64,000 nt of DNA from a virus. Taxonomy: Duplodnaviria; Caudoviricetes. The stretch is taken from the IMG/VR virus record IMGVR_UViG_2850949226_000003, positions 1 through 64,000 of that record. The stretch is one strand, 5' to 3'. Shown here in pieces: positions 3,923 to 30,474 of the stretch; the first letter of the stretch is position 1; every line of letters begins with the position of its first letter. Both the position numbers and the translations under genes were made by a program. The notes under the pieces were generated by a model. That model saw only the letters and a program-made list of their open reading frames with translations, made no database searches and was not told the origin of the DNA.

Positions 3923-4014
3923 TGTGTTCCTCCTTAATTGATTAATTCACGCCATTAACTGTTTTGGCTCTAAATTCAAACTCAAAAAACAAACTGATAT
4001 TTTCTCGCGACAAA

Positions 4015-4161
4015 TCAATCCAACTCCTTCACTTCCAAAAATCTGTCCGAATAGGCTCTCCGTGCGAATTCCTCTGCTTCAACTTTTGAATCAGCAACGA
4101 CAAGAATTCGAGATAGAGGCCCGAAACTCTTACGATCTTTGATAATAGCTTCATATTGCAA
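4015..4161 (-). CDS. Small hypothetical protein (48 aa, not in the ORF track)
   Basis: RBS GGAGGTGG, TTG start, MQYEAIIKDRKSFGPLSRILVVADSKVEAEEFARRAYSDRFLEVKELD. Confidence 0.65.
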   Translation of the reverse strand: MQYEAIIKDRKSFGPLSRILVVADSKVEAEEFARRAYSDRFLEVKELD

Positions 4162-4277
4162 TTAACCACCTCCTTATTCATTTGTCAGTTTTTATATAAC
4201 CGTAGGCTAACTATGTTAAACCTGATTTTTTGAAAAAAGTTATAAAGATTTAAGGGGGTACTCATAACCCTTTCAAT

Positions 4278-4306
4278 TTGAATAAAGTTATAGCGAAAGT
4301 TATGAT
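4278..4306 (+). promoter_or_regulatory. sigA-type promoter
   Basis: TTGAAT-17 bp-TATGAT upstream of the 4340 ORF. Confidence 0.65.
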
Positions 4307-4339
4307 AAAATCACGAAAGGAATTACGGAGTGATGTAGG

Positions 4340-4750
4340 GTGGAAACGAACAACTTTGGTGCATTGGATTATAAAGAATTCCAGGCACAAATGGACTTGG
4401 CGGGGGAACTGGCCTACAAAGAGAATTACGAGTCTGAAAAATACACTAGGACAGCATTTGAAGTCGAAGAGTACATGTTGTCAAACATGGAAGGTCAGCA
4501 GTTCAAATTAATGAGATACATCATTTACAAATGCTATAGAAGCCCCTCGTTTAATTCCTTATGGATGAAGGAAACGGTCGGGGAAATAGCCAGTAATCTA
4601 AAAATGGACCCGAAAACAGTGAAAAGACACCTACAGAAATTTGAAGATGCAAAAATTATCAAAAGGTACAAAAGGCATCCAAGGGATAAACAACACATCG
4701 TTTTAATGGCGACAAAATTTTGGGAGCCATTGAGCACCCCCTCAAAATAA
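4340..4750 (+). CDS. Winged-helix DNA-binding protein, putative replication initiator
   Basis: ETVGEIASNLKMDPKTVKRHLQKFEDAKII HTH; iteron-like repeats start at its 3' end. Confidence 0.65.
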   Translation: METNNFGALDYKEFQAQMDLAGELAYKENYESEKYTRTAFEVEEYMLSNMEGQQFKLMRYIIYKCYRSPSFNSLWMKETVGEIASNLKMDPKTVKRHLQKFEDAKIIKRYKRHPRDKQHIVLMATKFWEPLSTPSK

Positions 4751-4855
4751 CTGTGAAAGGGTAACAGTTACCCCCTCAAATCAATTTTGGCAGGGTAATG
4801 ATTACCCCCACCTATATATTAACTATTATTAAAGTATTAATTATTTATATAAAAC
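4725..4855. other. Putative replication origin (iterons plus AT-rich tract)
   Basis: GGGTAA-N3-TTACCC palindromes at 4759-4773 and 4793-4807, ACCCCC(T/A)C at 34-bp period, then an almost pure A/T tract at 4812-4853. Confidence 0.55.
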
Positions 4856-13175: not shown

Positions 13176-13298
13176 TTAAGACCCGAACCTATCGGCTACT
13201 ATGTGTGTGTTATTGTTTGATTTGACGTAGTACGAAGCAGTTGTAATACCAACAGCACCTAATAAAAGAACGGCACAAATTAGTAATTTAGTTTTCAT
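13176..13298 (-). CDS. phr: Phr signalling peptide precursor (not in the ORF track)
   Basis: MKTKLLICAVLLLGAVGITTASYYVKSNNNTHIVADRFGS: signal peptide plus C-terminal (A)DRFGS; overlaps the rap stop codon. Confidence 0.9.
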   Translation of the reverse strand: MKTKLLICAVLLLGAVGITTASYYVKSNNNTHIVADRFGS

Positions 13299-14409
13299 GT
13301 TCAAACCCACTCCTTTGAATTTGTCTTCTCGCACTCACGGCAACACGGTAAAGTTCCAACGCATCGTGAACCTTCTCTTCTCTTTCTAAGAGTTCAGCCC
13401 CAACGACTCCGTATTCTTCCATGTCTGCATACATGCCCTTCTCTTCGAAGAACTTAAAAGTATCTCGTATCAAGTCCATATCGTATTCTAAATAAAGTCC
13501 TTTGATCATTTTAAGCTTTGCCAGTACATCAGTATCCCGGTATTTTTCGGCTAGTTCGTAACCCTCCGAGTATAGGTCATTCACTTCGTTCCATTCGGTT
13601 TGCTTGGCTTTTACGTGTGTGAGGTTAAACATTGCCTTCGGGAGAAAGCTATGATTTTCCTCTCTATACAGGTTTAGGGCTTTTTTCAGATGATTGGAGG
13701 ATTTATCAAGTTCTTCAAGTTGATTATAACATATTCCGATATTCATGTGTGCTGTACCTGATAAATGAGTGGCGCGTTGTTTTAACGACTCCTCTAATGC
13801 AGTATTCAAATTATGTAACGCCTTTTCGGGGTACATCTTATCTAGCCAGTTTCCGGCAATAATGAATTGACATTGTATCATCCGTTCTCCGTAGGTTTCG
13901 TGGTTTTTGAATATGTTGTAAGCGCGAGTTGCATAATTCATCGAGAAGAACGTCTGTTTCATATGATAATATACTTCAGACAATTTGAAATAAAATTCTG
14001 CTTTTTCCACTTCATCACAATCGAAAGAGTTGAGTTGGTTCTCGGCTGTCCTGTAAAAATTTAAAGCGTGTATCAATTCTTTTTGCCTGAAATGATACAT
14101 TCCAGCGAAGAAATTGTAATAATACTCAAGCATTCCTTCGAGTGTTTGCGTCTGTCTGAGTGCTTGAAACTCCCTAAAACGGCTTTCAAGATCACCGCCA
14201 GCTCCTGAACTTAAATAATCAAGTTGGAGTTGATGCCTAAACTCCAATAGAGAGTAATAAATCAAGGCGTCTTGGTTCTCTTCCATTGAATTGATAATCT
14301 CTCTCACTTCATTTTTTGTTTTTTCCGCTTTATCCGGCCAGTTATTCACCAATGCTTTATACCAAAAGTTCATTTTTGTCGCAACCAAATCATACGGAAT
14401 TACGCTCAC
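13288..14409 (-). CDS. rap: Rap family aspartate phosphatase (RRNPP/TPR)
   Basis: MEENQDALIYYSLLEFRH, EYYYNFFAGMY, EKAEFYFKLSEVYYHMKQT signatures. Confidence 0.95.
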   Translation of the reverse strand: MSVIPYDLVATKMNFWYKALVNNWPDKAEKTKNEVREIINSMEENQDALIYYSLLEFRHQLQLDYLSSGAGGDLESRFREFQALRQTQTLEGMLEYYYNFFAGMYHFRQKELIHALNFYRTAENQLNSFDCDEVEKAEFYFKLSEVYYHMKQTFFSMNYATRAYNIFKNHETYGERMIQCQFIIAGNWLDKMYPEKALHNLNTALEESLKQRATHLSGTAHMNIGICYNQLEELDKSSNHLKKALNLYREENHSFLPKAMFNLTHVKAKQTEWNEVNDLYSEGYELAEKYRDTDVLAKLKMIKGLYLEYDMDLIRDTFKFFEEKGMYADMEEYGVVGAELLEREEKVHDALELYRVAVSARRQIQRSGFEHEN

Positions 14410-14639
14410 CTATCCTCTTCCCTTCACTCAAGATTATAAAATTTTCAGAAAATTAAAACATCATTTGGAAGTTTCCTTTTTCTACATAGTAAATATTCTA
14501 CATAATTAACGGTCTTTTGACAACCATATATTGTTATTGATCTTGAAAAAAGTTCCTATATATAGATGGCGATGCTGTTCACTTGTTCGTTGAAATGTCC
14601 CAACCAATATCGTATCCTTTTAACGGGGGTTGAAAGCGA

Positions 14640-14813
14640 ATGGATTATGAAACTAAAGGATACGATACGACGATCGTATACGACTACAAAGAGTACCCGG
14701 ACGTTCATCACGGACGGTGTGATAACTGCGATTATACGCTGTTTAAAAGTTCAGTTAAAGACGGCGTTTTCTTGCGTGAGTGTCGTCGGTGCGGAATGAA
14801 AAAGAGTATATAA
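14640..14813 (+). CDS. 57-aa Zn-ribbon protein (not in the ORF track)
   Basis: RBS GGGGG; MDYETKGYD...GRCDNC...RECRRCGMKKSI; terminator follows at about 14822-14848. Confidence 0.75.
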   Translation: MDYETKGYDTTIVYDYKEYPDVHHGRCDNCDYTLFKSSVKDGVFLRECRRCGMKKSI

Positions 14814-14981
14814 GAACACACAAGCCCGACTCATGCTGGGCTTTTTTCTCTTCGTTTTGGGATTTTTGTCCTGATCAATATGATTCATTTTCATGGGTGT
14901 ACAGGATTTATTCACCAATTCATTTCCGTATAGTGGTAAACTCTATACTGATTGTAACCATTAGTATTAGAGGAGAATGCC

Positions 14982-16646
14982 ATGAAAACCTTGGATGTTC
15001 AGGCGTTGCACAATGCAATTGATCAAACGCTGGAACAATTAAAACAACAGTCAGAAGAAATCGCCAAAGTCAAAAAGGCCGTTGAGGGCATCACGTCTCT
15101 TGACGATGCGTTAAAAGGAAAAGGCGGCGACGCGATCCGTGCCTTTTACGAGGAATGTCATACCCCATTCTTGAAGTTCTTTGAATCCTTTATCGAGGAA
15201 TATCAGTCAGCCTTGAAAAAAATGAAAAAAGAGCTTCAATCATTGGAACCGAATCATAACGGATTTATTTCACAAGCCTTTCTCGAACACGAATTGGAAC
15301 AAGGCTTGAACGCGGCCGATCGAACAACAAAAAACCTGGTGTCTAAAGCCAACGCTACGATCGCAAAAGTCAGCCACATTGTCGATTTGCCTGATTTGAA
15401 TGACACCGATTTTCATGAACAAAATCGAAAAGCGATGAAAGATATCAATCAAACGATCGAAAAACTCCATACCTTCGACCGCGAACAGACTAATGCGCTA
15501 AAAACAGCCGAAAATGATCTTGAGACGATGCAAAAGTACATTACAAGGCTCGAGAAAATGTATACCGGGCCTAAAATTGAAATCACCGGCTATCAAAAAG
15601 GATCGATTTCAAAACCAGAAGAAAACGCGAACATCAACGGACCTGTCGGCGGCCTTCAAGGAGAGCTGGAAAATGCCGAGCCATCTCCGATGGAAGTCAT
15701 GCTGAAAAAACTGTCCGATCAAGAAGACTCTGAAGTCGATTCACTGGCCAAAGCAGACCGTTCCAAAAAGATCGATACAGGTATTCGCGTCATCAATGGC
15801 AGAGTGTATAATATGAAGGGGTACAAAAAGCTCGGTTCTGTCGATGTCACCGATGAAATCGGTACAGGCAAGGAATTCGTCGGCGGTTCATACACGCTTT
15901 ATTCAAACGGTCAAATTGTTCGGAAGTACATATCCGGCGGTGAAGTGAAGTACGAGCTTGTCAGACGCATACCTGAAAATAGGGTGAAGAAAAGCGACAT
16001 TGAAAAAGCCTTTGATTGGGCTAAAGACACAGTTGGAGAGTTGTCCGGTGGATATGATGGTTACAGAGCGATAACAGGTGTTGATCCTGTGACCGGCGAA
16101 AAACTATCTGTCACTGACCGTATCCTGTCCGGTGTTTCTGTCATACCCGCTACTAAAGTAGTCAAGGTAGGAAAATACGTTTTTAAAGCGAATAAAGGTG
16201 CGAAAACGGTTAAAAAGGTTTCAAATGTTGAAAAGAGCGCTAAAGGTACTAATAAATCACTATTGCCTAACGAAGGAAAAGTTGGAACGTATAAAGAACT
16301 GATTAAACAAGGTACTGCCTTTGATAATATTACTCCTCACCATATGCCGTCTGCCGCTAAAATGAAACAGTCGGGTATAAAAAGGAACAATGGTATTAGT
16401 ATGAACATGGAACAACCACATCCTGGCACCGGAGGTAGACATCGTGAGACATATACCTATGGTTTATCAGGTCAAAAATTGAATGATTATCTAAAACTTG
16501 GTTACCGCGATGCTTTAGCTCATGATATTTGGGATGCTCGGAAAATTTATATAAAAGATGGTTTATACAATTCACAGGTAAAACAAGGTTTAAAAGACGT
16601 AATGAAGAAAAATAGAGAGCAATACCCACATTTATTTGATAAGTAA
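14982..16646 (+). CDS. T7SS LXG polymorphic toxin (LXG, pre-toxin TG, putative HNH-fold nuclease)
   Basis: LKGKGGDAIRAFY LXG domain; YDGYRAITGVDPVTGEKLS pre-toxin motif; C-terminal TPHH...GRH. Confidence 0.9.
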   Translation: MKTLDVQALHNAIDQTLEQLKQQSEEIAKVKKAVEGITSLDDALKGKGGDAIRAFYEECHTPFLKFFESFIEEYQSALKKMKKELQSLEPNHNGFISQAFLEHELEQGLNAADRTTKNLVSKANATIAKVSHIVDLPDLNDTDFHEQNRKAMKDINQTIEKLHTFDREQTNALKTAENDLETMQKYITRLEKMYTGPKIEITGYQKGSISKPEENANINGPVGGLQGELENAEPSPMEVMLKKLSDQEDSEVDSLAKADRSKKIDTGIRVINGRVYNMKGYKKLGSVDVTDEIGTGKEFVGGSYTLYSNGQIVRKYISGGEVKYELVRRIPENRVKKSDIEKAFDWAKDTVGELSGGYDGYRAITGVDPVTGEKLSVTDRILSGVSVIPATKVVKVGKYVFKANKGAKTVKKVSNVEKSAKGTNKSLLPNEGKVGTYKELIKQGTAFDNITPHHMPSAAKMKQSGIKRNNGISMNMEQPHPGTGGRHRETYTYGLSGQKLNDYLKLGYRDALAHDIWDARKIYIKDGLYNSQVKQGLKDVMKKNREQYPHLFDK

Positions 16647-16667
16647 AAATGGAAAGGGTGGGATTAT

Positions 16668-17129
16668 TTGGATATTAAGCCGGATTTGAAAAAAATATAT
16701 GAAAACCGTTTGTTGGAAAGTGAAGATGAAGTACAAGAGTTTGAAGAGTCCTTGGCAAAGGTTCTTGATTATGGAGACGTATCGGTTATCCCAGATTTAT
16801 GTAGGGCTTTCGATGACGATACTGAACAATTCGAGGTTATGTTTGGCTTAGTTCACGGAATTGAGAGGTTATACAAAAATAATATAGAAGAAGGACTAAC
16901 TTACATTGCTATAGCTGTTCCAGAGCTTCTTAGCCGAGCTGAAGAATGGGTTGAAATCTTACATTACAGGATTCTCAACCATCCTGAAGTAAGATTAGCT
17001 TATCGTAATGTGTTATCAAAACTTGATTCATCAATAGTTGTTAATATTAAAGATTTATTAACTGAAATAAAGAATGAGGACCCTGATATGTTTAGTGTGT
17101 CTGTAGATGAAGTAATTAGTGATATCTAA
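16668..17129 (+). CDS. Imm30-like immunity protein
   Basis: Directly downstream of the toxin; NRLL...FE...LC..FDD.TE...VMFGL.H.IE...RILNH. Confidence 0.8.
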   Translation: MDIKPDLKKIYENRLLESEDEVQEFEESLAKVLDYGDVSVIPDLCRAFDDDTEQFEVMFGLVHGIERLYKNNIEEGLTYIAIAVPELLSRAEEWVEILHYRILNHPEVRLAYRNVLSKLDSSIVVNIKDLLTEIKNEDPDMFSVSVDEVISDI

Positions 17130-17181
17130 ACCTTGGTTGGCTTTGTCCTTTCAAGGTTTTTGTTAAGGATGGGGGAAATTT

Positions 17182-17646
17182 TTGAATATCCAAACAGAGT
17201 TGAAAAAATTAAGAGATAATCGGTTACTAAGAAATTCTGATGAAATAAATGAATTCGAATCGGCCATCGCTAACATTGTTGAATTAGAGGATGCAGACCA
17301 TATTGAATACTTGTGTCAGGGATTCGATGATTCTACAGAAGAGGATGAAGTTATGTTTGGTTTGATCCACGCTATTGAATCATATGATAACAAATTTGAC
17401 GGAGAGATAACTTTGAAGAAGTTCGCTGAGGCTGTTCCAAGTATGTTGCCTCACCCTAAAGAATGGTCAAAAATTATGCATAAGAGAATTTTAAATCATG
17501 AACCTTCTAGGATCACTTATTCAAAGATCATCAAAGAACTTGATAAAGAAATCCAATCTAAAATCGTTGACCAGTTAGTTGAAATTAAAAACAAAAATCC
17601 TAAACGATTTGAAGCGAGCGCTAACCAAATTATCGAGCATTTATAA
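17182..17646 (+). CDS. Second, diverged Imm30-like immunity protein
   Basis: Shares NRLL, FDD.TE, VMFGL.H.IE, AVP, EW and RILNH with the preceding gene. Confidence 0.8.
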   Translation: MNIQTELKKLRDNRLLRNSDEINEFESAIANIVELEDADHIEYLCQGFDDSTEEDEVMFGLIHAIESYDNKFDGEITLKKFAEAVPSMLPHPKEWSKIMHKRILNHEPSRITYSKIIKELDKEIQSKIVDQLVEIKNKNPKRFEASANQIIEHL

Positions 17647-20057: not shown

Positions 20058-20374
20058 ATTATAAACTAAGTCCGAGACTTAAACGATATTTCGATGATAT
20101 TGAAATAAAGAAGATGATGAACAACAATATTTTTGAGTTTCAAAAGAAACGACAGGAATTTTTCAATTCAGAAATTAGAAGGGTGTTCGATCATTTCGGT
20201 TTAACGTTTGATGAAGTGAAGAAGCGCGCGAAGTTCGGAACCGATATAGACGGAAATCAGATTCTTTGGATTGACGATAAACAAGTTTTGACCTTTTCGA
20301 TGCCGGAGATTTCAGGCGCTCAAGTGATACAGCGGGTCAAGCGGCTTTATAAGGAGCGGCGGAATGATGCCTGA
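20054..20374 (+). CDS. Hypothetical protein
   Basis: ATGA overlap, RBS AAGGAGG. Confidence 0.7.
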   Translation: MNYKLSPRLKRYFDDIEIKKMMNNNIFEFQKKRQEFFNSEIRRVFDHFGLTFDEVKKRAKFGTDIDGNQILWIDDKQVLTFSMPEISGAQVIQRVKRLYKERRNDA

Positions 20375-20723
20375 AAAAATAATTGATGAAGTAAATTATT
20401 TAATGACTTTGACTGATGATGAATTAAACGAATTATTAATTAGTGAAAAATATAATAAAGCAAACTTGCGCGAGCTGGTAAGACGGACTTTGAAGGTTGC
20501 GAATGAGTATAAAAAAGCCTTTGAGTACGAGACAAGCGAAGAGAAAAAAGAAACTGATGAATCTTTAAAGCGTTATGACCGAATGGAGGCGGAAAACGAG
20601 CGGTTGAAGAAGGCGCTGAAATTAATCCAATCGAAGTCGGAGCTTCCCGAAGAACCAGTCGATTTAGTTCCGATTACTGAGCTATACGAAATAAATTTAC
20701 ACGCAAAGGAGGCGCTAAGATGA
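20364..20723 (+). CDS. Hypothetical coiled-coil protein
   Basis: RBS AAGGAG; EAENERLKKAL. Confidence 0.7.
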   Translation: MMPEKIIDEVNYLMTLTDDELNELLISEKYNKANLRELVRRTLKVANEYKKAFEYETSEEKKETDESLKRYDRMEAENERLKKALKLIQSKSELPEEPVDLVPITELYEINLHAKEALR

Positions 20724-20818: not shown

Positions 20819-21668
20819 ATGAAAGGTATTGCAAAACTGAATAATTTGTTCTCTAGGATTAAGTTTCTTCCGAAGACGGGAAATCGACTGAAGCAAACTT
20901 TTATTGAAGGGGGCAGAGTGTTGCAACCGACCAAAGCCACGACACTCTACCACCCGGCGCTTCCCAAGAGTGAGAAGCATACCAATTATATCATGTTTTC
21001 TCTCTTTTTTGCAATTCAGCTTTTACTATCGCCTGTCGTCCAAGCGGCTGATAAATACCAAAATTTCGCGGAATTACAGGCAAACGAAGACCCTGCAAAC
21101 TATAACATCGAGAGTGTAAGTCATGATCACTCTGTTCTTATATTCGCTCCGCATGGTGGAGGTATCGAAGGGGGAACAAGTGAAATTGCACGTCACTTGA
21201 GCGCAGGTTATTCGATGTATCTGTTTGAGGGACTAAAGTCTTCTGGAAACTTCGATTTACACATCACAAGTACAAATTTCGACGAACCCACCGCATTAAA
21301 AATGATCAGCAAACACCAATACGTCATATCTCTTCATGGTTATCGGGATAATAAAGAGCATGTCATTGTTGGTGGCTCTGACACCCTGAATGCGGCTCGC
21401 TTAACGGAGATTTTAAATGATGCAGGAATTTCAGCAGAACATAGAACAAGCGGCTCTCTAGCTGGAGTTGATCCGGGGGAACATTGCGAATAAGTGCATC
21501 ACAGGTAAAAGCATCCAGATCGAGATGAGCACACCGTTACGGAAATCCATGTTCGAAACGTTCACATTATCAGGAAGGTCTGGTTCTCAAAACGAAAGAT
21601 TTTATTTGTTCACTAATTTATTAACGACTTTCATCAAGGACACTTATGAAAGCGGGGTAAATGAGTAA
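20819..21668 (+). pseudogene. Poly-gamma-glutamate hydrolase (PghP/DUF867 family), frameshifted
   Basis: APHGGGIEGGTSE, LHITSTNFDEP, SLHG motifs; one extra G in CCGGGGGA (21475-21479) separates GVDP from NIANK...SIQIE in the 21468..21668 frame. Confidence 0.85.
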
Positions 21669-23422
21669 TGTTTACATTTATCCCGGCAGAATGGAATATC
21701 TTTACGGACAAAACGAATGCAAAAGAAACAACTGATGGTTTGAATGCTGTAATACACGCCGCACAAAAAGCAGGACACACTGAAATTTTTATTCCTAGAG
21801 GGAATTATTTAATTGACGGTGTAAATGAAACAGGGAAAACGCCAGAGGAAGGTGCAGGGATTCGCCCGCCTTCTAATATCAAAATCCTTATGCACCCCGA
21901 AACGGTTCTCAATGTAAAACCGAACGGTTCGTATGGGTATTCTTGTTTCCATCTGGAAACCGTTGAAAATGTCACGATATCAGGCGGGAAGATCAGAGGG
22001 GACCGGTACGAACATGATTTCACAGGGCATGGGGACCTCAAAGAAAAAGATACTCACGAATGGGGATTCGGAATTAATATCCAAGGTTCAAAAAATATCA
22101 TCATCGAAAATGTAGACATCACAGGTTTAACAGGAGATTGCATTTTCATATGTGCTAAAGGTCTGCTTAATGTCCCTTGGACAGATTACACGCCATCCCA
22201 AAACATAACCATCCGAAATTGTATTCTTGATGGATCACGCCGGAATAACATTTCTGTAACAGCCGGCGAAGGAGTTTTGATTCAAAGAAATGTTATCACA
22301 AACGCAGGAATTAATGATGGATGTAAACCAGGATTCGGTATTGATATAGAGGGGTATGGAGAAGGGGATATTGATTTCGAAGAACCGAAGAACATCATCG
22401 TTTCCAAAAACACTTTTATCGGCAATGTTAATCAGTCAGCCTGTAATTATAACGGGTATGGAGTGGTGTTCGAGGGGAACTATTCTGACAATTCCATTTC
22501 ATACGGGTATGGCACCGACACAGTTCTGTTTGATAACGTATTTAGTCGTGAGGACAAAAAGCAAGTTGCCATAACTGCTTTAGGGGTTTCTAACGGTAAG
22601 AAAGCCAATAATGTGTCTATCAAAGGGAATGTAGTCAAAGGCTTTAGTAGTGGTATAGATGCGCGTGGAAAAGGTATTGTCGTAACGGGGAATGCACTTT
22701 CAGAATTAGGTGGCGTTCCGATATCGACGTATAAAGCTGAAAATATCCTTATAACAAATAATATCGTTCACGAATGCAAGGGAACTCTGTGCAAGACCTT
22801 TCAATCAGGCGATGTTTTCATTCAAGGAAATAAGTTCAGCGATTCTGATGTAACTGCTTTCGAAATTGTGGATTCCGTTAACGTTAAATTGTTAATGAAT
22901 GACATAAGGAAATCAAAACAAGGTTTTAGGATCATGAGTTCAAGTGCAAAAATAATGGATAACATCATCGACTTATCAGAACATGAATCTCCGTCATACG
23001 GAATTTACTTTGACAAGTTCAGTGATGTAATTATGAAGCGGAATCATTTTGAAGGTCTGCGAAACATGGCTATCTACGGAGACAGCAAAGAAGGTCGGAA
23101 AGTCGAATTGAAACAAAACGTTATCAAAGATTTCCGGGCCATTATCCCGGTCTATATTGTCGGAGGAAAAGATCATAAAATCACAGACAATGACATCACT
23201 TTTAATCGTTCTTCGGACGGAGGATACGGCATCTATCTCAAAGATACAGATAACGTTATGATAGCTGGAAATTCTGTTCTGAATAATTCTCCGTTCAAAA
23301 TTGCAAGCCACATTAAGACGAACGAGTCGGTTAATTCTAAAGTGATCAATAACACTTTGTGCAAAAGCGGTAAATTACTTTTGAATGAAACCGATTCAGA
23401 GTACGGAAATATATTGATCTAA
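21668..23422 (+). CDS. Right-handed parallel beta-helix (pectin lyase-like) protein, SPbeta YorA-like
   Basis: IFIPRGNYLI, GGKIRGDR, HEWGFGI, RRNNIS and many I..N repeats; follows a pgh gene as in SPbeta yoqZ-yorA. Confidence 0.85.
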   Translation: MFTFIPAEWNIFTDKTNAKETTDGLNAVIHAAQKAGHTEIFIPRGNYLIDGVNETGKTPEEGAGIRPPSNIKILMHPETVLNVKPNGSYGYSCFHLETVENVTISGGKIRGDRYEHDFTGHGDLKEKDTHEWGFGINIQGSKNIIIENVDITGLTGDCIFICAKGLLNVPWTDYTPSQNITIRNCILDGSRRNNISVTAGEGVLIQRNVITNAGINDGCKPGFGIDIEGYGEGDIDFEEPKNIIVSKNTFIGNVNQSACNYNGYGVVFEGNYSDNSISYGYGTDTVLFDNVFSREDKKQVAITALGVSNGKKANNVSIKGNVVKGFSSGIDARGKGIVVTGNALSELGGVPISTYKAENILITNNIVHECKGTLCKTFQSGDVFIQGNKFSDSDVTAFEIVDSVNVKLLMNDIRKSKQGFRIMSSSAKIMDNIIDLSEHESPSYGIYFDKFSDVIMKRNHFEGLRNMAIYGDSKEGRKVELKQNVIKDFRAIIPVYIVGGKDHKITDNDITFNRSSDGGYGIYLKDTDNVMIAGNSVLNNSPFKIASHIKTNESVNSKVINNTLCKSGKLLLNETDSEYGNILI

Positions 23423-23640
23423 GAATAAAGCTGACGAATATTATGATAAGAGGGGGATTGCGACATGTTCTTGATATTGATTTTAACAGGCTTATTTGTT
23501 GTTGACGCAATAGGGATTGGACTTCGGTTGCATCTTACGCATTTTCGTATATCCCCCTTTTAGTTGTGATCACTGCGGTTTCGATATTTATGTCTTTCTA
23601 CACAATAATCAAATGGATGGACAAATAGGGGTGTGTCAGT

Positions 23641-23793
23641 ATGGCTGATGAAAAAGTTTGCTCTGTGTGCGGAAGAGAAGTTTTCCCTGACTATAATTTC
23701 TTTGATCGAGATGAAGTCTGCGATAGATGCTGGAAAGAATGGGAGCAGGAAAAGAGAGAACAGGAGCATGAATATTGGAGATCGAGGTTATGA
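23641..23793 (+). CDS. 50-aa Zn-finger protein (not in the ORF track)
   Basis: MADEKVCSVCGRE...EVCDRCWKEW; RBS AGGGG. Confidence 0.65.
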   Translation: MADEKVCSVCGREVFPDYNFFDRDEVCDRCWKEWEQEKREQEHEYWRSRL

Positions 23794-23838
23794 AACAGCC
23801 GATTATTTGCTTGGCTTAGGCGTTTAGAAGAATGGAGG

Positions 23839-24072
23839 ATGAAGATGAAAGAAGAATACGAACATCCAACACACAGGTTCAACAGTAACGGAGAATTGGT
23901 CCCTATTCAACCGCCTTTAAGCAGGAAACAGCGCAGGATGATCAAGCAAGTTCAAAAACGCAGAATCAAAAAATTAAAGAAAGCAAGACTTCAATTAGAG
24001 CGGGAGAAGATTAAGTATGACCAAACGGAGAAAGCCAAAACTAAAAGAAAAAATACGGGTAGTGACAGATGA
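23839..24072 (+). CDS. Basic hypothetical protein
   Basis: RBS GGAGG; SRKQRR motif. Confidence 0.6.
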   Translation: MKMKEEYEHPTHRFNSNGELVPIQPPLSRKQRRMIKQVQKRRIKKLKKARLQLEREKIKYDQTEKAKTKRKNTGSDR

Positions 24073-24297
24073 TTTCGACCATCCATTTAAATCAAATACA
24101 TTGGTCGAGGTAACAGAAATACTGATTATGGTGTTGTTTGGGCGAAGGATAAGTCGGGTATCTTAGGTTGTTTAATTCCTGATGATTATGTTTTTGAGGA
24201 CTCTATAGAAAAATAGAGTCCTTTTTATAACCAATTGGTTGAATTATTATGGTTATAGTGATAATATTCAGATATAAAAATAAAGGGAGGAAACTGG

Positions 24298-25044
24298 ATG
24301 TTCTTTTTGCATGATATTTGGATTAACTGGATCGAGGGAGCGATTAAAGGGTATCAAGTACCAGAATTCTTCGAATGGCACGCTAGTGATGATGTTACTC
24401 TTATGGATGTTATACCATTAATAAAAGTTGAGGAAGGGTTCTTCGATTACGTTGAAGATGGGATTAACGAATTGCCGTCTGATCTTATGCAATTAGTGAA
24501 AAACAGTGCTTGTATGTACAAAAAGAATGAGAAGGTCAATATGAGCGCGTTCGTCATAACAGATGGCAGGAGGATTTTAGCTGTCGATCCTGTAGATTCG
24601 AATTCTCCTTCCAAGAAGAGCAGACTAACTCTTCGTCATGAGCGGAAGATTTTGGAGATGGTCGAAGGAGTAGAGCCTTTGAAGTTTGAGTACACCCCAC
24701 TTCCTGAAGGTGATTTTGATTTCTTCAATGCCCCCGAACAGTTTATGTATGGTTTGACGAGGACCGAAAGAGAAGTGAAATCTTTGATCTTTGAAGGATT
24801 AATTTTAATGTATCCTGATGAGGATATCGCTAAATTAAGATACCTGTATCATGAGTGGGATTATAACAGTATAGATTCGATTAATGATTTAGAATTCAAA
24901 GACTTAATGGTTAGGTTATTATCGGAGGTTTCAATTGGTTTTCACCAAGGTCATAAAGACCTTGCTAAAGCGATTGCTAATACAGATGATATAATAAATT
25001 CAAAGTACAAATATATCATTGAAAGGAAGAACATGATTGGCTAG
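24298..25044 (+). CDS. yjbA: YjbA/MdfA (DUF3603) family protein
   Basis: M.FLHD.W.NW.EG...GY.V..F.EW...D.V.L.D..PL, TDG..ILAVD and KSRL..R.E match B. subtilis YjbA as recalled. Confidence 0.85.
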   Translation: MFFLHDIWINWIEGAIKGYQVPEFFEWHASDDVTLMDVIPLIKVEEGFFDYVEDGINELPSDLMQLVKNSACMYKKNEKVNMSAFVITDGRRILAVDPVDSNSPSKKSRLTLRHERKILEMVEGVEPLKFEYTPLPEGDFDFFNAPEQFMYGLTRTEREVKSLIFEGLILMYPDEDIAKLRYLYHEWDYNSIDSINDLEFKDLMVRLLSEVSIGFHQGHKDLAKAIANTDDIINSKYKYIIERKNMIG

Positions 25045-25459
25045 GAAAAGTTGGGATCAATATTTTATGGAGCAAGCAGAACTTGTCTCTACCCGCGCGA
25101 CTTGCGACAGGTTGAAGGTTGGTGCTGTTCTAGTTAAAGATAACAGGATAATTGCTACGGGTTATAACGGTTCTATTTCTGGTACTGCTCACTGCGATGA
25201 CGTAGGCCATCTTATGTACGAGAATGGTTGTAAAAGGACAATACATGCGGAGTTTAATGCTATTTTACAATGTGCGAAATATGGTGTTGCCGTAGATGGC
25301 GCCACGGCTTATGTAACTCATTATCCATGCCCGTCTTGTATGCAAGCTTTAAATCAGGCTGGCATCAAGAGAGTGGTTTATAGGTATTTCTATAAGCATA
25401 GATACGAAAACGATTTTGATCAAGGGATGGAAGTGGTTCAATTTGAAGGGGATAATTAG
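25037..25459 (+). CDS. dCMP deaminase (ComEB-like)
   Basis: RATC.RL.VGA, ATGYNG, HAEFNA, PCPSC. Confidence 0.92.
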   Translation: MARKSWDQYFMEQAELVSTRATCDRLKVGAVLVKDNRIIATGYNGSISGTAHCDDVGHLMYENGCKRTIHAEFNAILQCAKYGVAVDGATAYVTHYPCPSCMQALNQAGIKRVVYRYFYKHRYENDFDQGMEVVQFEGDN

Positions 25460-25712
25460 AAGAGTCGATGTTTTAGGTAGGATTGTATTACCGAAGGCTT
25501 TTAGAGAAGCTTGTGGTATTAATTCAGGAGACGAAGTTGAAATCGTTATGAAGGGGAACGGTATTTATCTTCAAAAACACAACAGATACGCTAGGTGTGC
25601 TATGACGGGGGAAGTTACAGAAGATATCAAGGTATACGGGAACGGAATTTTTTTGAGTCGAAAAGGGCGTGAACAATTATTGGAGGATTTAAAAAGAGAA
25701 GGGGATTCTTGA
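25416..25712 (+). CDS. AbrB-like transition-state regulator
   Basis: GIIRRVDVLGRIVLPK..R...I..GD.VEI, then C..TGEV and LS..G.EQL as in AbrB/Abh; start probably TTG near 25443. Confidence 0.88.
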   Translation: MIKGWKWFNLKGIIRRVDVLGRIVLPKAFREACGINSGDEVEIVMKGNGIYLQKHNRYARCAMTGEVTEDIKVYGNGIFLSRKGREQLLEDLKREGDS

Positions 25713-25835
25713 GAAGCAACCTTTAAAACTAGGTACTGTTATAACCGTATCGATTTGATTTTAACATTATATTAGTTATAAAATTAAGGTATAAAGATTT
25801 GATTTGAACTTCGTGGAAGAAATGGAGGAAACAGA

Positions 25836-26069
25836 ATGAAAGTCAGGGTTAAGGAGTTAAACGAAGATAAAGCGATCTTGGAAGTTCATACTACCAGTGG
25901 AATTAAGGAATTGGTTGTTTCAAGAACGCAATTTGGGCATTCTTATGACGACTTTTCTTCTTGGGATATTTCTGATCAGAATTATTACGACTTAGAAGAT
26001 TTGGTTGATAATGTGATAGCTCGTATGAGTGGAACCGCATCGTCGTTGGAAGTCGAATGGGAGGTTTAA
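25836..26069 (+). CDS. Hypothetical protein
   Basis: RBS GGAGG. Confidence 0.7.
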   Translation: MKVRVKELNEDKAILEVHTTSGIKELVVSRTQFGHSYDDFSSWDISDQNYYDLEDLVDNVIARMSGTASSLEVEWEV

Positions 26070-26269
26070 GAATGAAAATTATTTCGAGAAAAGAAATGAA
26101 TGCCGCTGATTTTGCTTCCGAATTGTTTGGGGTTATTCCTATAGGTCAAGCTAAAGAAATTTATCGGAATATTGAACATTATACAGAGGCTAAGAAAAAC
26201 ATCATTATTGACCTCTTGAGGGCAAACCCAAGAAAATACATTGCGGCTTTATTAAAATATGACGACTAA
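26057..26269 (+). CDS. Hypothetical protein (start probably MKIIS)
   Basis: RBS GGGAGG. Confidence 0.65.
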   Translation: MGGLRMKIISRKEMNAADFASELFGVIPIGQAKEIYRNIEHYTEAKKNIIIDLLRANPRKYIAALLKYDD

Positions 26270-26477
26270 AACATTCGATGACTTATATGCCGGGGTATAT
26301 CTGGATGTGGTTCATGACAAGGATTATATCTATTCCTCCGGCTTTGTTGGTTTTTGTAAGGTTTGCAATCGGTTAACCCGTTGGACATCGATCCTATATG
26401 GGTGCTACGCATGTAGTGAGGAATGTATAAGGCATCTCGATAGGAGTGGGTATTTTGATTTCATGGAAAGTGATTAG
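26259..26477 (+). CDS. Small Zn-binding protein
   Basis: CKVC and CSEEC. Confidence 0.65.
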   Translation: MTTKTFDDLYAGVYLDVVHDKDYIYSSGFVGFCKVCNRLTRWTSILYGCYACSEECIRHLDRSGYFDFMESD

Positions 26478-26856
26478 GGATGATGCTGTTGTATTCGAGG
26501 GACCTATTGAACTTGCAGTATTGCACTTGAAACAATTTGGAGAGAAATTCAAACTAAAAGTCTTTATAAAAGAAATGGAGATATATGTTGTTGATTCGAA
26601 AGTCGAAGTAAGCAGATCAGAGCTTATAAAACAAGGTATGAAGAGAAAACAAATAGAAAAATTCAGGAAGTACAAGGGTTTCGTTAACGACCCCGGTTAT
26701 AAATTCTGTACCCATTGCAAATTGAGCAAACCCTTAGATGCTTTTGGTTTCAGGTCTAATAGCGAAGACGGCAGAGCAAGGCAATGCCGCGAGTGCGTGA
26801 ATAAAAAGGCAAAGAAGTATAGGAATCGCAGAACGAGGAAGGAAGAAGAAAAGTGA
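26446..26856 (+). CDS. Protein with a C-terminal CxxC..CxxC Zn finger
   Basis: KFCTHCKLSKPLDAF...DG...QCRECV, as in the N-termini of phage HNH/EndoVII proteins; no nuclease domain seen. Confidence 0.65.
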   Translation: MGILISWKVIRDDAVVFEGPIELAVLHLKQFGEKFKLKVFIKEMEIYVVDSKVEVSRSELIKQGMKRKQIEKFRKYKGFVNDPGYKFCTHCKLSKPLDAFGFRSNSEDGRARQCRECVNKKAKKYRNRRTRKEEEK

Positions 26857-27164
26857 AATTGCAGAATGTATTGGAAAAGTTTAAACAGCAGGGAAATTAT
26901 GCAGTGTCTCTTTTTTATGGTGAAGGTATGGGGTGCGACGATTTAGGTGTTCCGCAAGAAGAGAGAAAGATTCAAATAGTCATGCACCCGGTTGGATATT
27001 TAGGTGGTGTCAGGAAGTTGGTTGTAACTAATTTGAAGGAATTAGAGGATTTTGATTTTGAGCAAAAACCTAAAGTTATCAGTAACCCACCGGAAACCCA
27101 TGAGTATTCAGAAAATGGAGTTTATATTTGGGGAACAGAAGAGGCGATTAAAAAGTTTGTTTAA
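26853..27164 (+). CDS. Hypothetical protein
   Basis: GTGA overlap with the upstream gene. Confidence 0.65.
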   Translation: MKLQNVLEKFKQQGNYAVSLFYGEGMGCDDLGVPQEERKIQIVMHPVGYLGGVRKLVVTNLKELEDFDFEQKPKVISNPPETHEYSENGVYIWGTEEAIKKFV

Positions 27165-27215
27165 CGATCGATGTATAGCTTCGAGGACGCCTTCGCCAAC
27201 ACAACCGTTTGATCT

Positions 27216-28046
27216 TTGATTGGTCAAGGCGTTCAGTTAGTAGTGATAAAAGGAGGATGCCTTGTGGGTGATAAGGTAATCAGAGCTTCGGACAATGAAG
27301 AAGTAAAATATGACATTATCGATTTTAAGAAACTCACAACGGTCATGAAAAGGTTTTTGGGTAGCAAAAAATCTGATCCGGAAGTAACGAAGTGGTATAA
27401 GGTAGAAGATGGTCTTCATTTTATGGCGACAACATTAGGGTCTGCGGTTTACATTCTTTTCAAAAACAAATATGCCGGTACTTTTAATAAAGCGACTGGA
27501 AAAGACTTCTTTGTGAAACCTTTATCTAACGGAAAACAAGAGGAAGTTGAAGCCATCCCTGAATTAGAAATTGTTACTGAAGGAAAGAAAAAAATTGAAA
27601 GACCTACAGGAAGGACACTTGAATATCCTGATGTAGTTGGTCTGTTTAATAGTTTTAATTTTAATGATTTTCATAAAGTTGAAATAGATGTAGATGACAC
27701 TGATGATTTTATTTCGGTTCATGAAGCGATGTCGAAAGCATCGAAGGTAGGCGGACCGCATAATACAGCCAAGATGAAAATTGAGAGTAATGAGCTATTA
27801 TTAAAACTTCATGATTCTCCGATTGATTTTGAATTCAAATACAAAATAAAAAGTGATAATCGATTTTGTTTTGGGGATTATCATTATGATTTTGATTTAA
27901 TGACAGCAATATTCAAATCGTTAAAGGACCTAAAACCTTACAAAATCGAAATGTATGTAAGAGATATTGACCATCCCATCCTATTTGTCGGTGAATCAAC
28001 TGACTATAACTTTAACTTTGCAATTCAAAGGATATTAGTTAGATAG
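27216..28046 (+). CDS. Hypothetical protein, possible divergent sliding clamp
   Basis: Start probably GTG near 27264 (RBS AAAGGAGG); EYPDV linker and C-terminal YDFDLM...FKSL...IEMY....HPILF resemble beta-clamp. Confidence 0.45.
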   Translation: MIGQGVQLVVIKGGCLVGDKVIRASDNEEVKYDIIDFKKLTTVMKRFLGSKKSDPEVTKWYKVEDGLHFMATTLGSAVYILFKNKYAGTFNKATGKDFFVKPLSNGKQEEVEAIPELEIVTEGKKKIERPTGRTLEYPDVVGLFNSFNFNDFHKVEIDVDDTDDFISVHEAMSKASKVGGPHNTAKMKIESNELLLKLHDSPIDFEFKYKIKSDNRFCFGDYHYDFDLMTAIFKSLKDLKPYKIEMYVRDIDHPILFVGESTDYNFNFAIQRILVR

Positions 28047-28052
28047 GAGAGT

Positions 28053-28544
28053 ATGATGAAAATGACACCGGGTGTAGGCGATTATGTCGAAGTGTTGGGG
28101 TGTTCTTATGGCGGCAGGGACATTTTTATCGGAAAGACTGGTGAAATTGTGGAGATCAACAAAGACCGTTCGCCAGCTATATATAAAGTGAGAGTTAGAT
28201 TTGAATGGATTAATCAAGTGTGGTGGTTTAAGTCATCCGAATTGAGGGTTCTTAAAAAAGGTTTGGAAACAATCCCAACTAAGTTGAATAGTCGTTATGT
28301 GGCAAAAGCTTTTTGGATTGGCCACAAGAAAATGATGGAAGAGAAAGTGAAACAATTAGAGGAAGATTGCAAAAAGGTCGGAAGAGAAATGTTGCTTGCT
28401 CTTTGTGATGGCAGTTTCAATATAGAGGACGCTATTTATTGGCACGAACAATGCAAAGAATTATTTGAGATGTACACCGGATACAAGGAGAAGTTAGAAA
28501 AAGCTAAAGGGGTAGTTGGTGCCGAAGATGAAAAACTCAACTAA
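28053..28544 (+). CDS. Hypothetical protein with an N-terminal KOW/SH3-like domain
   Basis: VGDYVEV...IGKTGEIVEI...VRF...WF.SSEL. Confidence 0.65.
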   Translation: MMKMTPGVGDYVEVLGCSYGGRDIFIGKTGEIVEINKDRSPAIYKVRVRFEWINQVWWFKSSELRVLKKGLETIPTKLNSRYVAKAFWIGHKKMMEEKVKQLEEDCKKVGREMLLALCDGSFNIEDAIYWHEQCKELFEMYTGYKEKLEKAKGVVGAEDEKLN

Positions 28545-29220
28545 GATGATGGAGCTATTCAAGAGTAAACCGATCTTTGAAGAGCTTGCGGAATTGAGGT
28601 TAAAAATCGCAACGACAGATGATTTAAAAATAAAGGGCGAATTGGAATTGTATGAAGATCGTATCCGTGAGTTCTCCGTTTCTTTATTGAAAAGGGTTAA
28701 AGCGAGAGAGAACGGGGCATTTGAAGAATTAATGAGTCTCAAGGATATGAAGAATTTTCTTCATTTTTACGCTTACCATATCAGGGATTACCATAAATTT
28801 AGGTACAGCAAACAAAACGTTCTCCACGAAATCAGATTTCAAATATTTTACCACGTAGTAAACAATTATCGCATTTATAATGAACCTCACGAAATCAGCC
28901 TATTAATCACAAGTATGAGGAACTGGATCAGACAGAAGGTTAGTGCCGCATTAAAAAACACATACAATCCGAAGGACGATGAGAAATTAGATCAAGTTTT
29001 TTTAGTAGGGGATGCGACGGATGATACAGAGGTTCTTGTGCGGGATCTAATTGACAGATACCTCGATAGAGAGGAAAAAATTGTTTTTGAGTTGAAATTC
29101 TTTGAAGAGAGAGGCTTCGTGGAAATCGGAAAATTCATAGGAGCTTCGAAAGATACCGCCCAAAGAAGATACAAAAAAGCTTTAAATAAATTGAGTAAAA
29201 TATTGTCGAAAGAGTTATAA
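28516..29220 (+). CDS. Phage sigma-70 family RNA polymerase sigma factor
   Basis: AFEEL region-2 start; C-terminal L.REEKIVFELKFFEE.GFVEIG..IG.SK.TA.RRYKKAL.KL region-4 HTH. Confidence 0.75.
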   Translation: MVPKMKNSTKMMELFKSKPIFEELAELRLKIATTDDLKIKGELELYEDRIREFSVSLLKRVKARENGAFEELMSLKDMKNFLHFYAYHIRDYHKFRYSKQNVLHEIRFQIFYHVVNNYRIYNEPHEISLLITSMRNWIRQKVSAALKNTYNPKDDEKLDQVFLVGDATDDTEVLVRDLIDRYLDREEKIVFELKFFEERGFVEIGKFIGASKDTAQRRYKKALNKLSKILSKEL

Positions 29221-29233
29221 GGAGGACGTATAA

Positions 29234-29731
29234 GTGCGATTAACTAAATTGTTCGAAATACAACGTAAATTAGATAGGCGTATTGTCGTGGAAAAGGGAC
29301 TTGAGCGGCAAGACCTCTTGTGGAATAAAATATTAGCTTTGCAAGTTGAATTGGCAGAATTGGCTCAAGAAGTACAGGACGAATGGAAGTTTTGGAAAAC
29401 AAACTTCAAAAGATGTTCCGGCAAAATATTAGAAGAGTATTGTGATTGTTTACATTTTGTTTTGAGCATTGGAATTGAACATGGATTCGATAAACATGCA
29501 GATGGATTGGTAATTGACTCTATTGAATGTCCGAATATGGTGTTCCAAATCTCCGAGCTGATGCAATGCAATTGGTACTTGTACGAGGAAGGAGATGACG
29601 GAGACTACCATGAAGGTTTTGAGCTGTTTTTAGGTCTAGGAAAAATGTTGGGGTTTACGTGGGAAGAAGTGGAGAAAGCATACTTAGAAAAGAATAAAAT
29701 CAACCACAAAAGACAAGATCAAGGATATTGA
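29234..29731 (+). CDS. dut: Dimeric (all-alpha) dUTPase
   Basis: LALQVELAELA, WKFWK, LEEYCDCLHFVLSIG, AY..KN..N..RQ..GY. Confidence 0.88.
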   Translation: MRLTKLFEIQRKLDRRIVVEKGLERQDLLWNKILALQVELAELAQEVQDEWKFWKTNFKRCSGKILEEYCDCLHFVLSIGIEHGFDKHADGLVIDSIECPNMVFQISELMQCNWYLYEEGDDGDYHEGFELFLGLGKMLGFTWEEVEKAYLEKNKINHKRQDQGY

Positions 29732-29756
29732 TAAAGATTAACCTTCTAACTTTTTA

Positions 29757-29785
29757 TTGAAAACACGTTTATATCCAGTTATAAT
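29757..29785 (+). promoter_or_regulatory. sigA promoter overlapped by GTTATAA sites
   Basis: TTGAAA-17 bp-TATAAT; GTTATAA at 29778 and 29788. Confidence 0.7.
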
Positions 29786-29829
29786 CGGTTATAAAGTGAG
29801 TAAGACGATAAAAGGTTAGGAGGTTCTTT

Positions 29830-30474
29830 ATGTCTGAAAAGCATAACAATCTTCAGGGCGAAGTATGGACCGATGATGACGATATTCAATTAGCTGAAAC
29901 GGTGTTGAGGAGGGTTAGACAAGGAGATTCCGTAATTGATGCTTGCCGCGAGTTTGAAGAAGCCACAAAAGGCAGACGAACATCATCAGCTTCTAAATTC
30001 AGATGGCACACAAAATTAAAAGAACGATATGCTGGCGCTTACGAATTAGCCAGAAGGGAAGGGAAGAAAACAAGAGATTATAAACGCCGAAAAGTAAACC
30101 AAGGCGAACGCTATCAAGATTTGTTGGAAAACGTTTTGGACAAGGATAGTGACAGAGAGATCACTATTGATGATATTTTGATTTTAGTCAAAAAATACAA
30201 AGAACAAAGTGAAGACAAAGTTAGTGAATATGAACGTTATGAAAAAGAAACCGATAAACTCCGCAGAGAAATCGAAAAGCTCAAAAAAGAGTTGAAAGAT
30301 GAACGTTTAGAAAAGAAACAAATGAAAGAAGCTTTAATTGAGGTTGATCGCAACTACAAAAAACTATTGGATGCTCTCAAAGTTCTGAAGGAAGCCGGAA
30401 TTCAAATCAATGTTCCCGAACCTGAATCATTCGAATATATAGTCAATAAAGATGGTACTGTAGAAAAAATGTAA
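29830..30474 (+). CDS. RsfA family transcriptional regulator
   Basis: W...DD..LAETVLR.VR.G and RT..A..FRW Myb-like N-terminus plus coiled coil. Confidence 0.85.
   Translation: MSEKHNNLQGEVWTDDDDIQLAETVLRRVRQGDSVIDACREFEEATKGRRTSSASKFRWHTKLKERYAGAYELARREGKKTRDYKRRKVNQGERYQDLLENVLDKDSDREITIDDILILVKKYKEQSEDKVSEYERYEKETDKLRREIEKLKKELKDERLEKKQMKEALIEVDRNYKKLLDALKVLKEAGIQINVPEPESFEYIVNKDGTVEKM

Follow-up and report, generated by a model that had tools for sequence, protein, structure and literature searches.

MdfA (YjbA) of Bacillus subtilis and MecA are both activators of ClpC which act via the N-domain of that protein (PMC11960690, PMC6873191), but they are of unrelated fold and engage different surfaces of the N-domain (PMC11960690). 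As reported in Massoni 2025 (PMC11960690), MdfA is conserved in endospore-forming Bacillaceae, the homology searches described there having found no more distant relatives, and its vegetative expression leads to ClpCP-dependent filamentation and lysis. MdfA serves in the forespore as an adaptor through which ClpCP is directed to metabolic enzymes, dozens of which are reported to be depleted by MdfA (Riley 2025, PMC11960778). Among Bacillus phages, Gp53 of SPO1 is described as binding the ClpC N-domain, stimulating ATPase activity and benefiting phage development (Mulvenna 2019, PMC6873191), as well as competing with MecA for ClpC (PMC6873191). The present analysis concerns a stretch of 64,000 nucleotides (positions 1 to 64,000 of IMG/VR record IMGVR_UViG_2850949226_000003, hereafter the window), in which open reading frame (ORF) 24298-25044 specifies an MdfA-like protein within an intact temperate phage of Bacillus licheniformis. 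An earlier note on this DNA had recognized a phage-borne, full-length YjbA homolog at the head of an operon that also comprises genes for a dCMP deaminase and an AbrB-like protein, had suggested that it redirects or competitively blocks ClpCP, and had proposed confirmation with hidden Markov models (HMMs) and a phylogeny as checks.

The product of ORF 24298-25044 is a full-length member of the MdfA (YjbA/DUF3603/UPF0736) family. The Pfam model PF12227 (DUF3603) matches its residues 35 to 230 with an E value of 1e-39 and a score of 136.6 bits, the gathering cut-off being 23.7, which supplies the HMM confirmation proposed in the earlier note; a genome-level search returned the same match. Residues 1 to 233 match phrog_7257 (“unknown function”; E value, 2.6e-43), and residues 1 to 220 match chain A of PDB entry 8B3S (“UPF0736 protein YjbA”) in a HMMER search (E value, 1e-43); a search of the NCBIfam models with the same protein returned no match. 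An AlphaFold2 model built from a 42-row alignment was predicted with a mean predicted local distance difference test (pLDDT) score of 92.8 and a predicted template modeling (pTM) score of 0.86, and a Foldseek search of the PDB with this model at an E value of ≤0.001 returned 8b3s_A as the sole match (E value, 3e-24; TM scores, 0.84/0.86). The two structures superimpose with a root mean square deviation of 2.6 over 241 columns at 33% identity and share a similar interdomain position, the beta-rich N-domain (approximately residues 1 to 131) and helical-bundle C-domain (approximately residues 147 to 245) of 8B3S chain A both being present in the phage protein model. Because the Pfam, PHROG, PDB and Foldseek matches all agree, the full-length similarity is far beyond chance, and the full-length resemblance to YjbA claimed earlier is thus borne out by both profile and fold. 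The phage protein therefore shares with B. subtilis MdfA its Pfam family, length and two-domain fold, in addition to three acidic ClpC contacts (see below), and differs from it in sequence (33 to 34% identity), in being borne by a prophage beside nucleotide-metabolism genes, in the lack of a sigma-F-type promoter discernible by eye, and in having a function that is predicted from sequence.

The relationship between the phage protein and the host adaptor was assessed next to a broad sample of the family. Between the canonical YjbA of the host species B. licheniformis (P0191) and the phage protein, identity amounts to 34% (79 of 230 residues; E value, 1e-49), and the chromosomal N-terminal signature GEENGYNVC reads GAIKGYQVP in the latter. 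Of the 401 Bacilli species genomes sampled, 41 contained a single match, of 29 to 38% identity, and none of these 41 harbored a second family copy. A search of 1.84 billion representative proteins returned 198 clusters (counted at 50% identity) at an E value of ≤0.001, 96 at 1e-10 and 22 at 1e-30, the nearest representatives being 97%, 51%, 43% and 40% identical to the phage protein. A FastTree phylogeny of 179 sequences was computed from the window protein, 46 chromosomal copies (30 from the 401-genome sample and 16 of 80 halophile loci), 4 phage isolates and 128 representatives of at least 190 amino acids; shorter representatives, P0001, the duplicates L001, L082 and L113, a split copy from phage SIOphi and 64 of the 80 halophile loci were set aside, and the midpoint root that was applied is unreliable. 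The halophile loci stem from a related-locus scan with an alignment of canonical MdfA, which returned 557 chromosomal loci, the best 80 of which were kept (halophilic Bacillaceae). An equivalent scan with the single protein returned no locus in viral or genome contigs, one with P0013 as the query returned none in viral contigs, and two family alignments were too diverse to yield patterns for such scans.

In this tree, the chromosomal MdfA copies form one tight clade, and the window protein lies outside it, grouping with P0005, P0006, P0007, P0045, P0008, P0016 and P0010, two of which are encoded on contigs of 76 and 80 kb. The copies from Herelleviridae phages form a separate, long-branched clade. 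The phage protein thus occupies a divergent, non-chromosomal branch that is separate from host MdfA. Recent capture of the gene from the host was rejected as an origin because identity to the host copy is only 34%. Orthology with the chromosomal sporulation gene was likewise considered, and the phage gene was found to fall short of it, at 34% identity and outside the chromosomal clade. Approximately 42 clusters of metagenome proteins of roughly 200 to 220 amino acids, found among P0091 to P0152 on short contigs, were also observed to form a distant DUF3603 clade.

Evidence which bears on function comes from the residues that contact ClpC. In the co-crystal of MdfA(YjbA) and the ClpC N-domain (8B3S, in which chain A includes a 21-residue tag), MdfA residues E161, E116 and E53 are reported to lie within bonding distance of ClpC residues K12, K85 and H79, respectively (Massoni 2025, PMC11960690). 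According to the same paper, charge swaps at these contacts reduce interaction in the two-hybrid assay as well as sporulation function and vegetative toxicity, all of which recover partly or fully when swaps in MdfA and ClpC are paired, and the docking surface on ClpC corresponds to the target of anti-mycobacterial cyclic peptides; AlphaFold-Multimer is reported there to have missed the true interface (PMC11960690). In the HMMER alignment to 8B3S as well as in the family alignment, MdfA residues E53, E116 and E161 align with E53, E115 and E157 of the phage protein. Glutamate occupies each of the three positions in all 46 chromosomal copies. In the clade of the window protein it is found in 5 of 8 sequences at E53, 7 of 8 at E115 (with aspartate in the eighth) and 8 of 8 at E157, the corresponding figures being 19, 15 (plus 9 with aspartate) and 29 of 29 in the Herelleviridae-like clade and 0, 39 and 39 of 42 in the distant clade of approximately 210 amino acids.

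The position corresponding to MdfA E161 stands out among these, as the 42-sequence alignment has only five columns without variation, E157 among them, and a glutamate is found there in 98% of the 128 sequences that remain once the 46 CHR_-labelled rows, the window protein and four canonical-type representatives are omitted, so that E157 ties with W27 as the most conserved column. The surrounding motifs, KSRL..R.E and GLTR.ER, represent the stretches of DUF3603 with the highest conservation. On the side of the partner, ClpC of one B. subtilis-group genome, the MdfA of which clusters at 90% with that of B. licheniformis, carries Q11-K12 and the sequence HYTPRAKK at residues 80 to 87. Taken together, the pattern of conservation fits a conserved docking function combined with diverged remaining surfaces. 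The ClpC reading of the earlier note stands in so far as the three ClpC-contact glutamates are kept, and has to be qualified in that the phage protein is no close copy of the host adaptor.

Copies of the gene are widespread among phages rather than rare. A tblastn search of 50,697 phage records identified 55 with a copy, mostly Herelleviridae, 50 of them at a query cover of at least 80% and all at below 60% identity; among the matches listed (the best 40 of the 55), identity ranged from 24.5% to 38.4%. Named Bacillus phages account for 54 of these 55 records, and two uncultivated viral contigs also carry a DUF3603 copy. The Herelleviridae proteins (phiNIT1 orf271, Goe8_c00310, Eldridge_023 and Shbh1 gp85; phrog_7257) resemble that of the window in being phage borne and uncharacterized and in their linkage to genes for thymidylate or deoxynucleoside monophosphate (dNMP) metabolism, PghP and beta-helix proteins, whereas they are only 23 to 33% identical to it, belong to another clade, and are encoded by virulent myophages rather than a temperate phage. 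The GenBank note on Shbh1 gp85 (“DUF3603 domain”) illustrates that such copies have been catalogued without being characterized. In line with this, the statement of the earlier note that no characterized phage copy was known held in literature searches, which covered main texts: no searchable paper was found to link MdfA, YjbA, DUF3603 or UPF0736 to phages, supplements lying outside the search. The word “phage” is absent from the main text of both MdfA papers (PMC11960690, PMC11960778), “bacteriophage” occurring once, for lambda cI.

It is proposed that the phage MdfA-like protein probably steers the host ClpCP protease, and, more specifically, that it represents an MdfA-type adaptor deployed by the phage which docks on the ClpC N-domain, activates ClpCP and sends phage-chosen proteins to degradation during phage development, a reading to which we assign a probability of approximately 0.5. 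According to this model, the protein would probably be made from its own promoter in growing cells during phage development and would dock on the N-domain surface used by MdfA, around Q11/K12, H79 and K85 of ClpC. ClpC would then be switched on as it is by MdfA, through hexamer assembly and ATPase activity, and ClpCP would degrade a set of proteins picked by the diverged surfaces of the phage version. As unscheduled MdfA activity harms the growing host, the protein could help to turn the cell to phage production alongside the deoxynucleotide enzymes of the phage. This reading is favored by the long retention of the family in phages (55 records, two viral contigs and a PHROG family of its own) and by the putative expression signals of the gene itself, comprising an upstream hairpin, a promoter-like site and a strong ribosome-binding site. 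Phage hijacking of ClpCP, moreover, already has a precedent in SPO1 Gp53, a ClpC-N-domain-binding Bacillus phage protein which provides a functional parallel for the proposed role and has no detectable homology to DUF3603. Gp53 (a ClpC binder of 25 kDa) was also considered as a hidden DUF3603 relative, in view of the many distant family matches of approximately 210 amino acids, and was rejected, with an hhalign probability of 0.5% in comparison with the family profile and no DUF3603 Pfam match at an E value of ≤1.

Several observations weigh against the adaptor model. Identity to host MdfA is low (34%), and the E53 position is occupied by glutamine, alanine or valine in three of the eight sequences of the window clade. 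Among chromosomal columns that are at least 95% conserved, 43 of 86 are kept in the phage protein (N-domain, 30 of 52; C-domain, 13 of 33); because half of them have changed, activation or substrate choice may differ or may have been lost. The comparison covers the three glutamate contacts only, the hydrophobic part of the ClpC interface lying outside it. The promoter was identified by inspection and scores under the cut-off of the consensus scan, and the available RNA-library data, which consist of contigs only and are partly DNA-like, give no support for transcription. Finally, the linkage to thymidylate genes described below finds no explanation under the adaptor model.

The same conservation pattern may be read in a different manner, namely, that the phage protein is a blocker or decoy which occupies or locks the ClpC N-domain without delivering host substrates and thereby keeps host adaptors off. 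Such a protein might displace MdfA and perhaps, by steric means, MecA or McsB, and might thus protect phage proteins or prevent forespore shutdown. The retention of the contact glutamates while half of the chromosomally conserved columns changed, mostly in the C-domain, would be compatible with this, as would the competition of Gp53 with MecA noted above (PMC6873191). A decoy would, however, need neither the full two-domain architecture nor the interdomain arrangement, both of which are kept, and the motifs that are conserved family-wide reach beyond the three contacts; we therefore regard blocking, with the scope just described, as unlikely.

In the layout of the locus (Table 1), the MdfA-like gene is the first of three overlapping genes together with those for the dCMP deaminase and the AbrB-like protein, an arrangement that supports the operon described in the earlier note.

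Table 1. Features in the region of the MdfA-like gene, in window coordinates
Feature	Position	Strand	Details
Poly-gamma-glutamate hydrolase (PghP-like)	20819..21493	+	PF05908, E value 5e-49
Right-handed beta-helix protein, 584 aa (YorA-like, “tail spike” PHROG)	21668..23422	+	PF13229, E value 5e-28; phrog_2234, E value 1e-82
Terminator-like hairpin	24196..24230	+	11 pairs (24196-24223), then a T-rich tail; closes the upstream unit
Candidate sigma-A-type extended -10 promoter	24239..24267	+	TTGAAT (24239-24244), 17 nt, TGaTAATAT; read by eye
Ribosome-binding site	24282..24290	+	AAAGGGAGG; 7 nt upstream of the MdfA-like ATG
MdfA/YjbA-family (DUF3603) protein	24298..25044	+	248 aa, ATG start
dCMP (deoxycytidylate) deaminase	25037..25459	+	140 aa; PF00383, E value 2.1e-30; phrog_174, E value 1e-53
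AbrB-like DNA-binding protein	25443..25712	+	89 aa, TTG start; AbrB_C, E value 3e-11; MazE/AbrB N-domain, E value 6e-11

The MdfA-like gene and the deaminase ORF share 8 nucleotides at the stop of the former and the start of the latter, and the end of the deaminase gene is in turn overlapped by 17 nucleotides by the AbrB-like gene, the TTG start of which follows the PGAP annotation of the identical record NZ_CP021678.1. The deaminase scores 173.5 bits against TIGR02571 (ComEB), under its cut-off of 219, and the AbrB-like protein matches the TIGR01439 AbrB family with an E value of 2.5e-10. The hairpin upstream of the MdfA-like gene folds with a free energy of -15.6 kcal/mol (z score, -4.3), 1 of 200 shuffled sequences being equally stable; it is not listed in a consensus scan of the upstream region. 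Nor does that scan list the candidate promoter, which has 8 of 12 hexamer matches, the threshold being 9 of 12. Public runs filed as RNA that hold this stretch were available as Logan contigs only. Two of them (X2 and X3) have contigs of 71 kb and 34.8 kb over the stretch (longest records, 112.7 and 223.2 kb) and are DNA-like; a third (X1) covers the MdfA-like gene with a 21-kb contig; and in a fourth (X6) one contig ends at 24141 and another spans 24292 to 24864, leaving the gap with the hairpin and promoter bare, although gaps between contigs are uninformative.

The same layout has been weighed for a role in lysogenic conversion, in which the prophage copy would add to or alter forespore MdfA and thereby tune dormancy or the carriage of the phage into spores. 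A promoter-like site behind a terminator-like hairpin amounts to a moron-like arrangement, and the prophage carries a RapH-like phosphatase in addition to the AbrB-like protein of the MdfA-like operon. Phage homologs of forespore sigma factors are, furthermore, reported to alter sporulation, among them the sigma-F-like ELDg169 of phage Eldridge (PMC9429907), a phage that also carries DUF3603 (Eldridge_023). Against this, inspection by eye revealed no persuasive match to a promoter of sigma-F or sigma-G type ahead of the MdfA-like gene. The notion that the sigma factor encoded in the window is of sporulation type proved unsupported, its best NCBIfam matches scoring 17 to 30 bits against cut-offs of 43 to 457. 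Most phage copies, moreover, reside in virulent Herelleviridae, to which lysogenic conversion is inapplicable. A sporulation factor of this kind is consequently considered improbable.

The gene neighborhoods of other phage copies were compared in seven loci, those of Goe8, SIOphi, phiNIT1, Eldridge and Shbh1, all five of which are Herelleviridae (Bastillevirinae), and of two uncultivated viral contigs (L120 and L122). The thymidylate synthase gene thyA lies no more than approximately 3.5 kb upstream of the DUF3603 gene in 7/7 loci, and the gene directly upstream of DUF3603 encodes dihydrofolate reductase (DHFR) in 6/7 and a dNMP kinase in Shbh1. PghP was annotated or detected near DUF3603 in Goe8, phiNIT1, L120 and L122, and in phiNIT1 a 587-residue beta-helix protein (orf587), encoded between DUF3603 and pghP, shares 34% identity with the 584-residue protein of the window across 578 residues. 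Because PghP, the beta-helix protein and DUF3603 recur together in other Bacillus phages, the window carries, in rearranged form, a set of genes which travels between Bacillus phages that are unrelated to one another, and in which here the DHFR gene upstream of DUF3603 is replaced by a dCMP deaminase gene downstream.

Further features of these loci were recorded in passing. In SIOphi, the DUF3603 region (L115:3998-4792) is annotated as two coding sequences, 3998-4237 and 4241-4792, this copy being split or containing a sequencing error. At L122:5131-6807, the thymidylate synthase ORF of 558 amino acids contains an I-HmuI/NUMOD-like endonuclease domain ahead of the C-terminal ThyA part, which suggests that an endonuclease has been inserted into or fused with thyA. 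An AbrB-family regulator of Shbh1 (L118:5479-5970), encoded 0.7 kb downstream of DUF3603, echoes the AbrB-like gene in the operon of the window.

The synteny with thymidylate genes might reflect a role in deoxynucleotide supply, whereby the protein would work with the thymidylate module, either by removing a host enzyme or a nucleotide-depleting defense protein via ClpCP or in a ClpC-independent manner. In addition to the thyA and DHFR linkage in the other phages, the window gene is translationally coupled to that for the dCMP deaminase, a dUTPase gene follows 4.2 kb downstream, and ThyA and ribonucleotide reductase are encoded by the same phage. The synteny may, however, merely reflect a common block of early or middle genes, the most conserved residues are ClpC contacts, and the structural model found no match to an enzyme fold; we accordingly hold this role to be quite improbable. 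That the gene is a functionless passenger is scarcely credible, given its intact frame, strong ribosome-binding site and high-confidence predicted fold, the occurrence of its 7-member 90%-identity cluster in both B. licheniformis and Bacillus sonorensis, and the retention of the family in many phage lineages.

The history of the family could also be viewed from the side of the phages: DUF3603 may at root be a phage family of ClpC-hijacking adaptors which travels with the thymidylate module, chromosomal MdfA being a domesticated phage copy. This proposal is tentative and, in our view, unlikely. It would explain the presence of one tight chromosomal clade among long and diverse non-chromosomal branches, and also why unscheduled MdfA kills growing cells.

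The MdfA family thus extends past the Bacillaceae-only picture of 2025, to a temperate phage, 55 Bacillus phage records and 198 clusters at 50% identity. Across the whole family, few positions are conserved as well as that of the residue in contact with ClpC K12, which makes a structure-guided experiment feasible, and the phage copies could help to reveal how MdfA chooses its substrates. If the adaptor model is true, it would add a second, independent route of ClpCP hijacking after SPO1 Gp53. Neither the MdfA family nor the manipulation of ClpCP by phages is new in itself, but their combination is absent from the searchable papers; the locus therefore presents no new kind of system, but a real homology in an unusual setting and a testable hypothesis.

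The provirus in the IMG/VR source record comprises 78,281 bases, with an estimated completeness of 97%, and its integration, terminase, lysin and replication genes confirm that the MdfA-like gene resides in a phage, as stated previously. A large serine recombinase and a tyrosine integrase are encoded at the left end, followed rightwards by the poly-gamma-glutamate hydrolase, the beta-helix protein, the MdfA-like operon, a sigma-factor-like gene and a dimeric dUTPase, and then by the terminase, an ORF of 1986 amino acids in the tail region, an amidase/LysM lysin, thymidylate synthase and a PD-(D/E)XK nuclease. Past the window end, a primase, the DnaB helicase, a second sigma factor, PhoH and both subunits of ribonucleotide reductase are encoded. 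All named members of the 90%-identity cluster mentioned above come from B. licheniformis or B. sonorensis, and the contigs that carry them reach 4.7 Mb in length. Comparison of positions 22000 to 30000 with the phage collection by megablast returned no near-identical DNA, and no terminase in the collection exceeds 38.5% identity to that of the window phage (best match, Microcystis phage MaeS, then PBC4 and Stahl-type siphophages), which indicates that the window phage has no close sequenced relative there.

Two sigma-factor-like phage genes were observed, one at 28516-29220 of the window, in which only region 4 is detectable, and one at L124:3405-4127, in which regions 2 and 4 are found. Positions 13288 to 17646 of the window hold a gene for a RapH-like aspartate phosphatase on the minus strand and an LXG/PT-TG polymorphic toxin gene followed by two Imm30 immunity genes, the RapH-like phosphatase, LXG toxin and Imm30 being annotated identically in NZ_CP021678.1; these represent further host-manipulation and competition modules of the prophage. 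NZ_CP021678.1 itself (100,616 bp), which was deposited as B. licheniformis “plasmid pBL027-1,” shares the gene order of the window, encodes an identical DUF3603 protein, and may be the window phage assembled as an excised or episomal element that is 22 kb longer than the provirus record. All four aligned runs have an extra G after position 23627, just upstream of a Cys-rich ORF (23641-23793), which may represent a one-base error or variant in the window. Between ORF 20364-20723 and the PghP gene, 96 bases at 20608-20705 are swapped for 117 in runs X2 and X3, and this segment constitutes a small variable cassette among variants of the phage.

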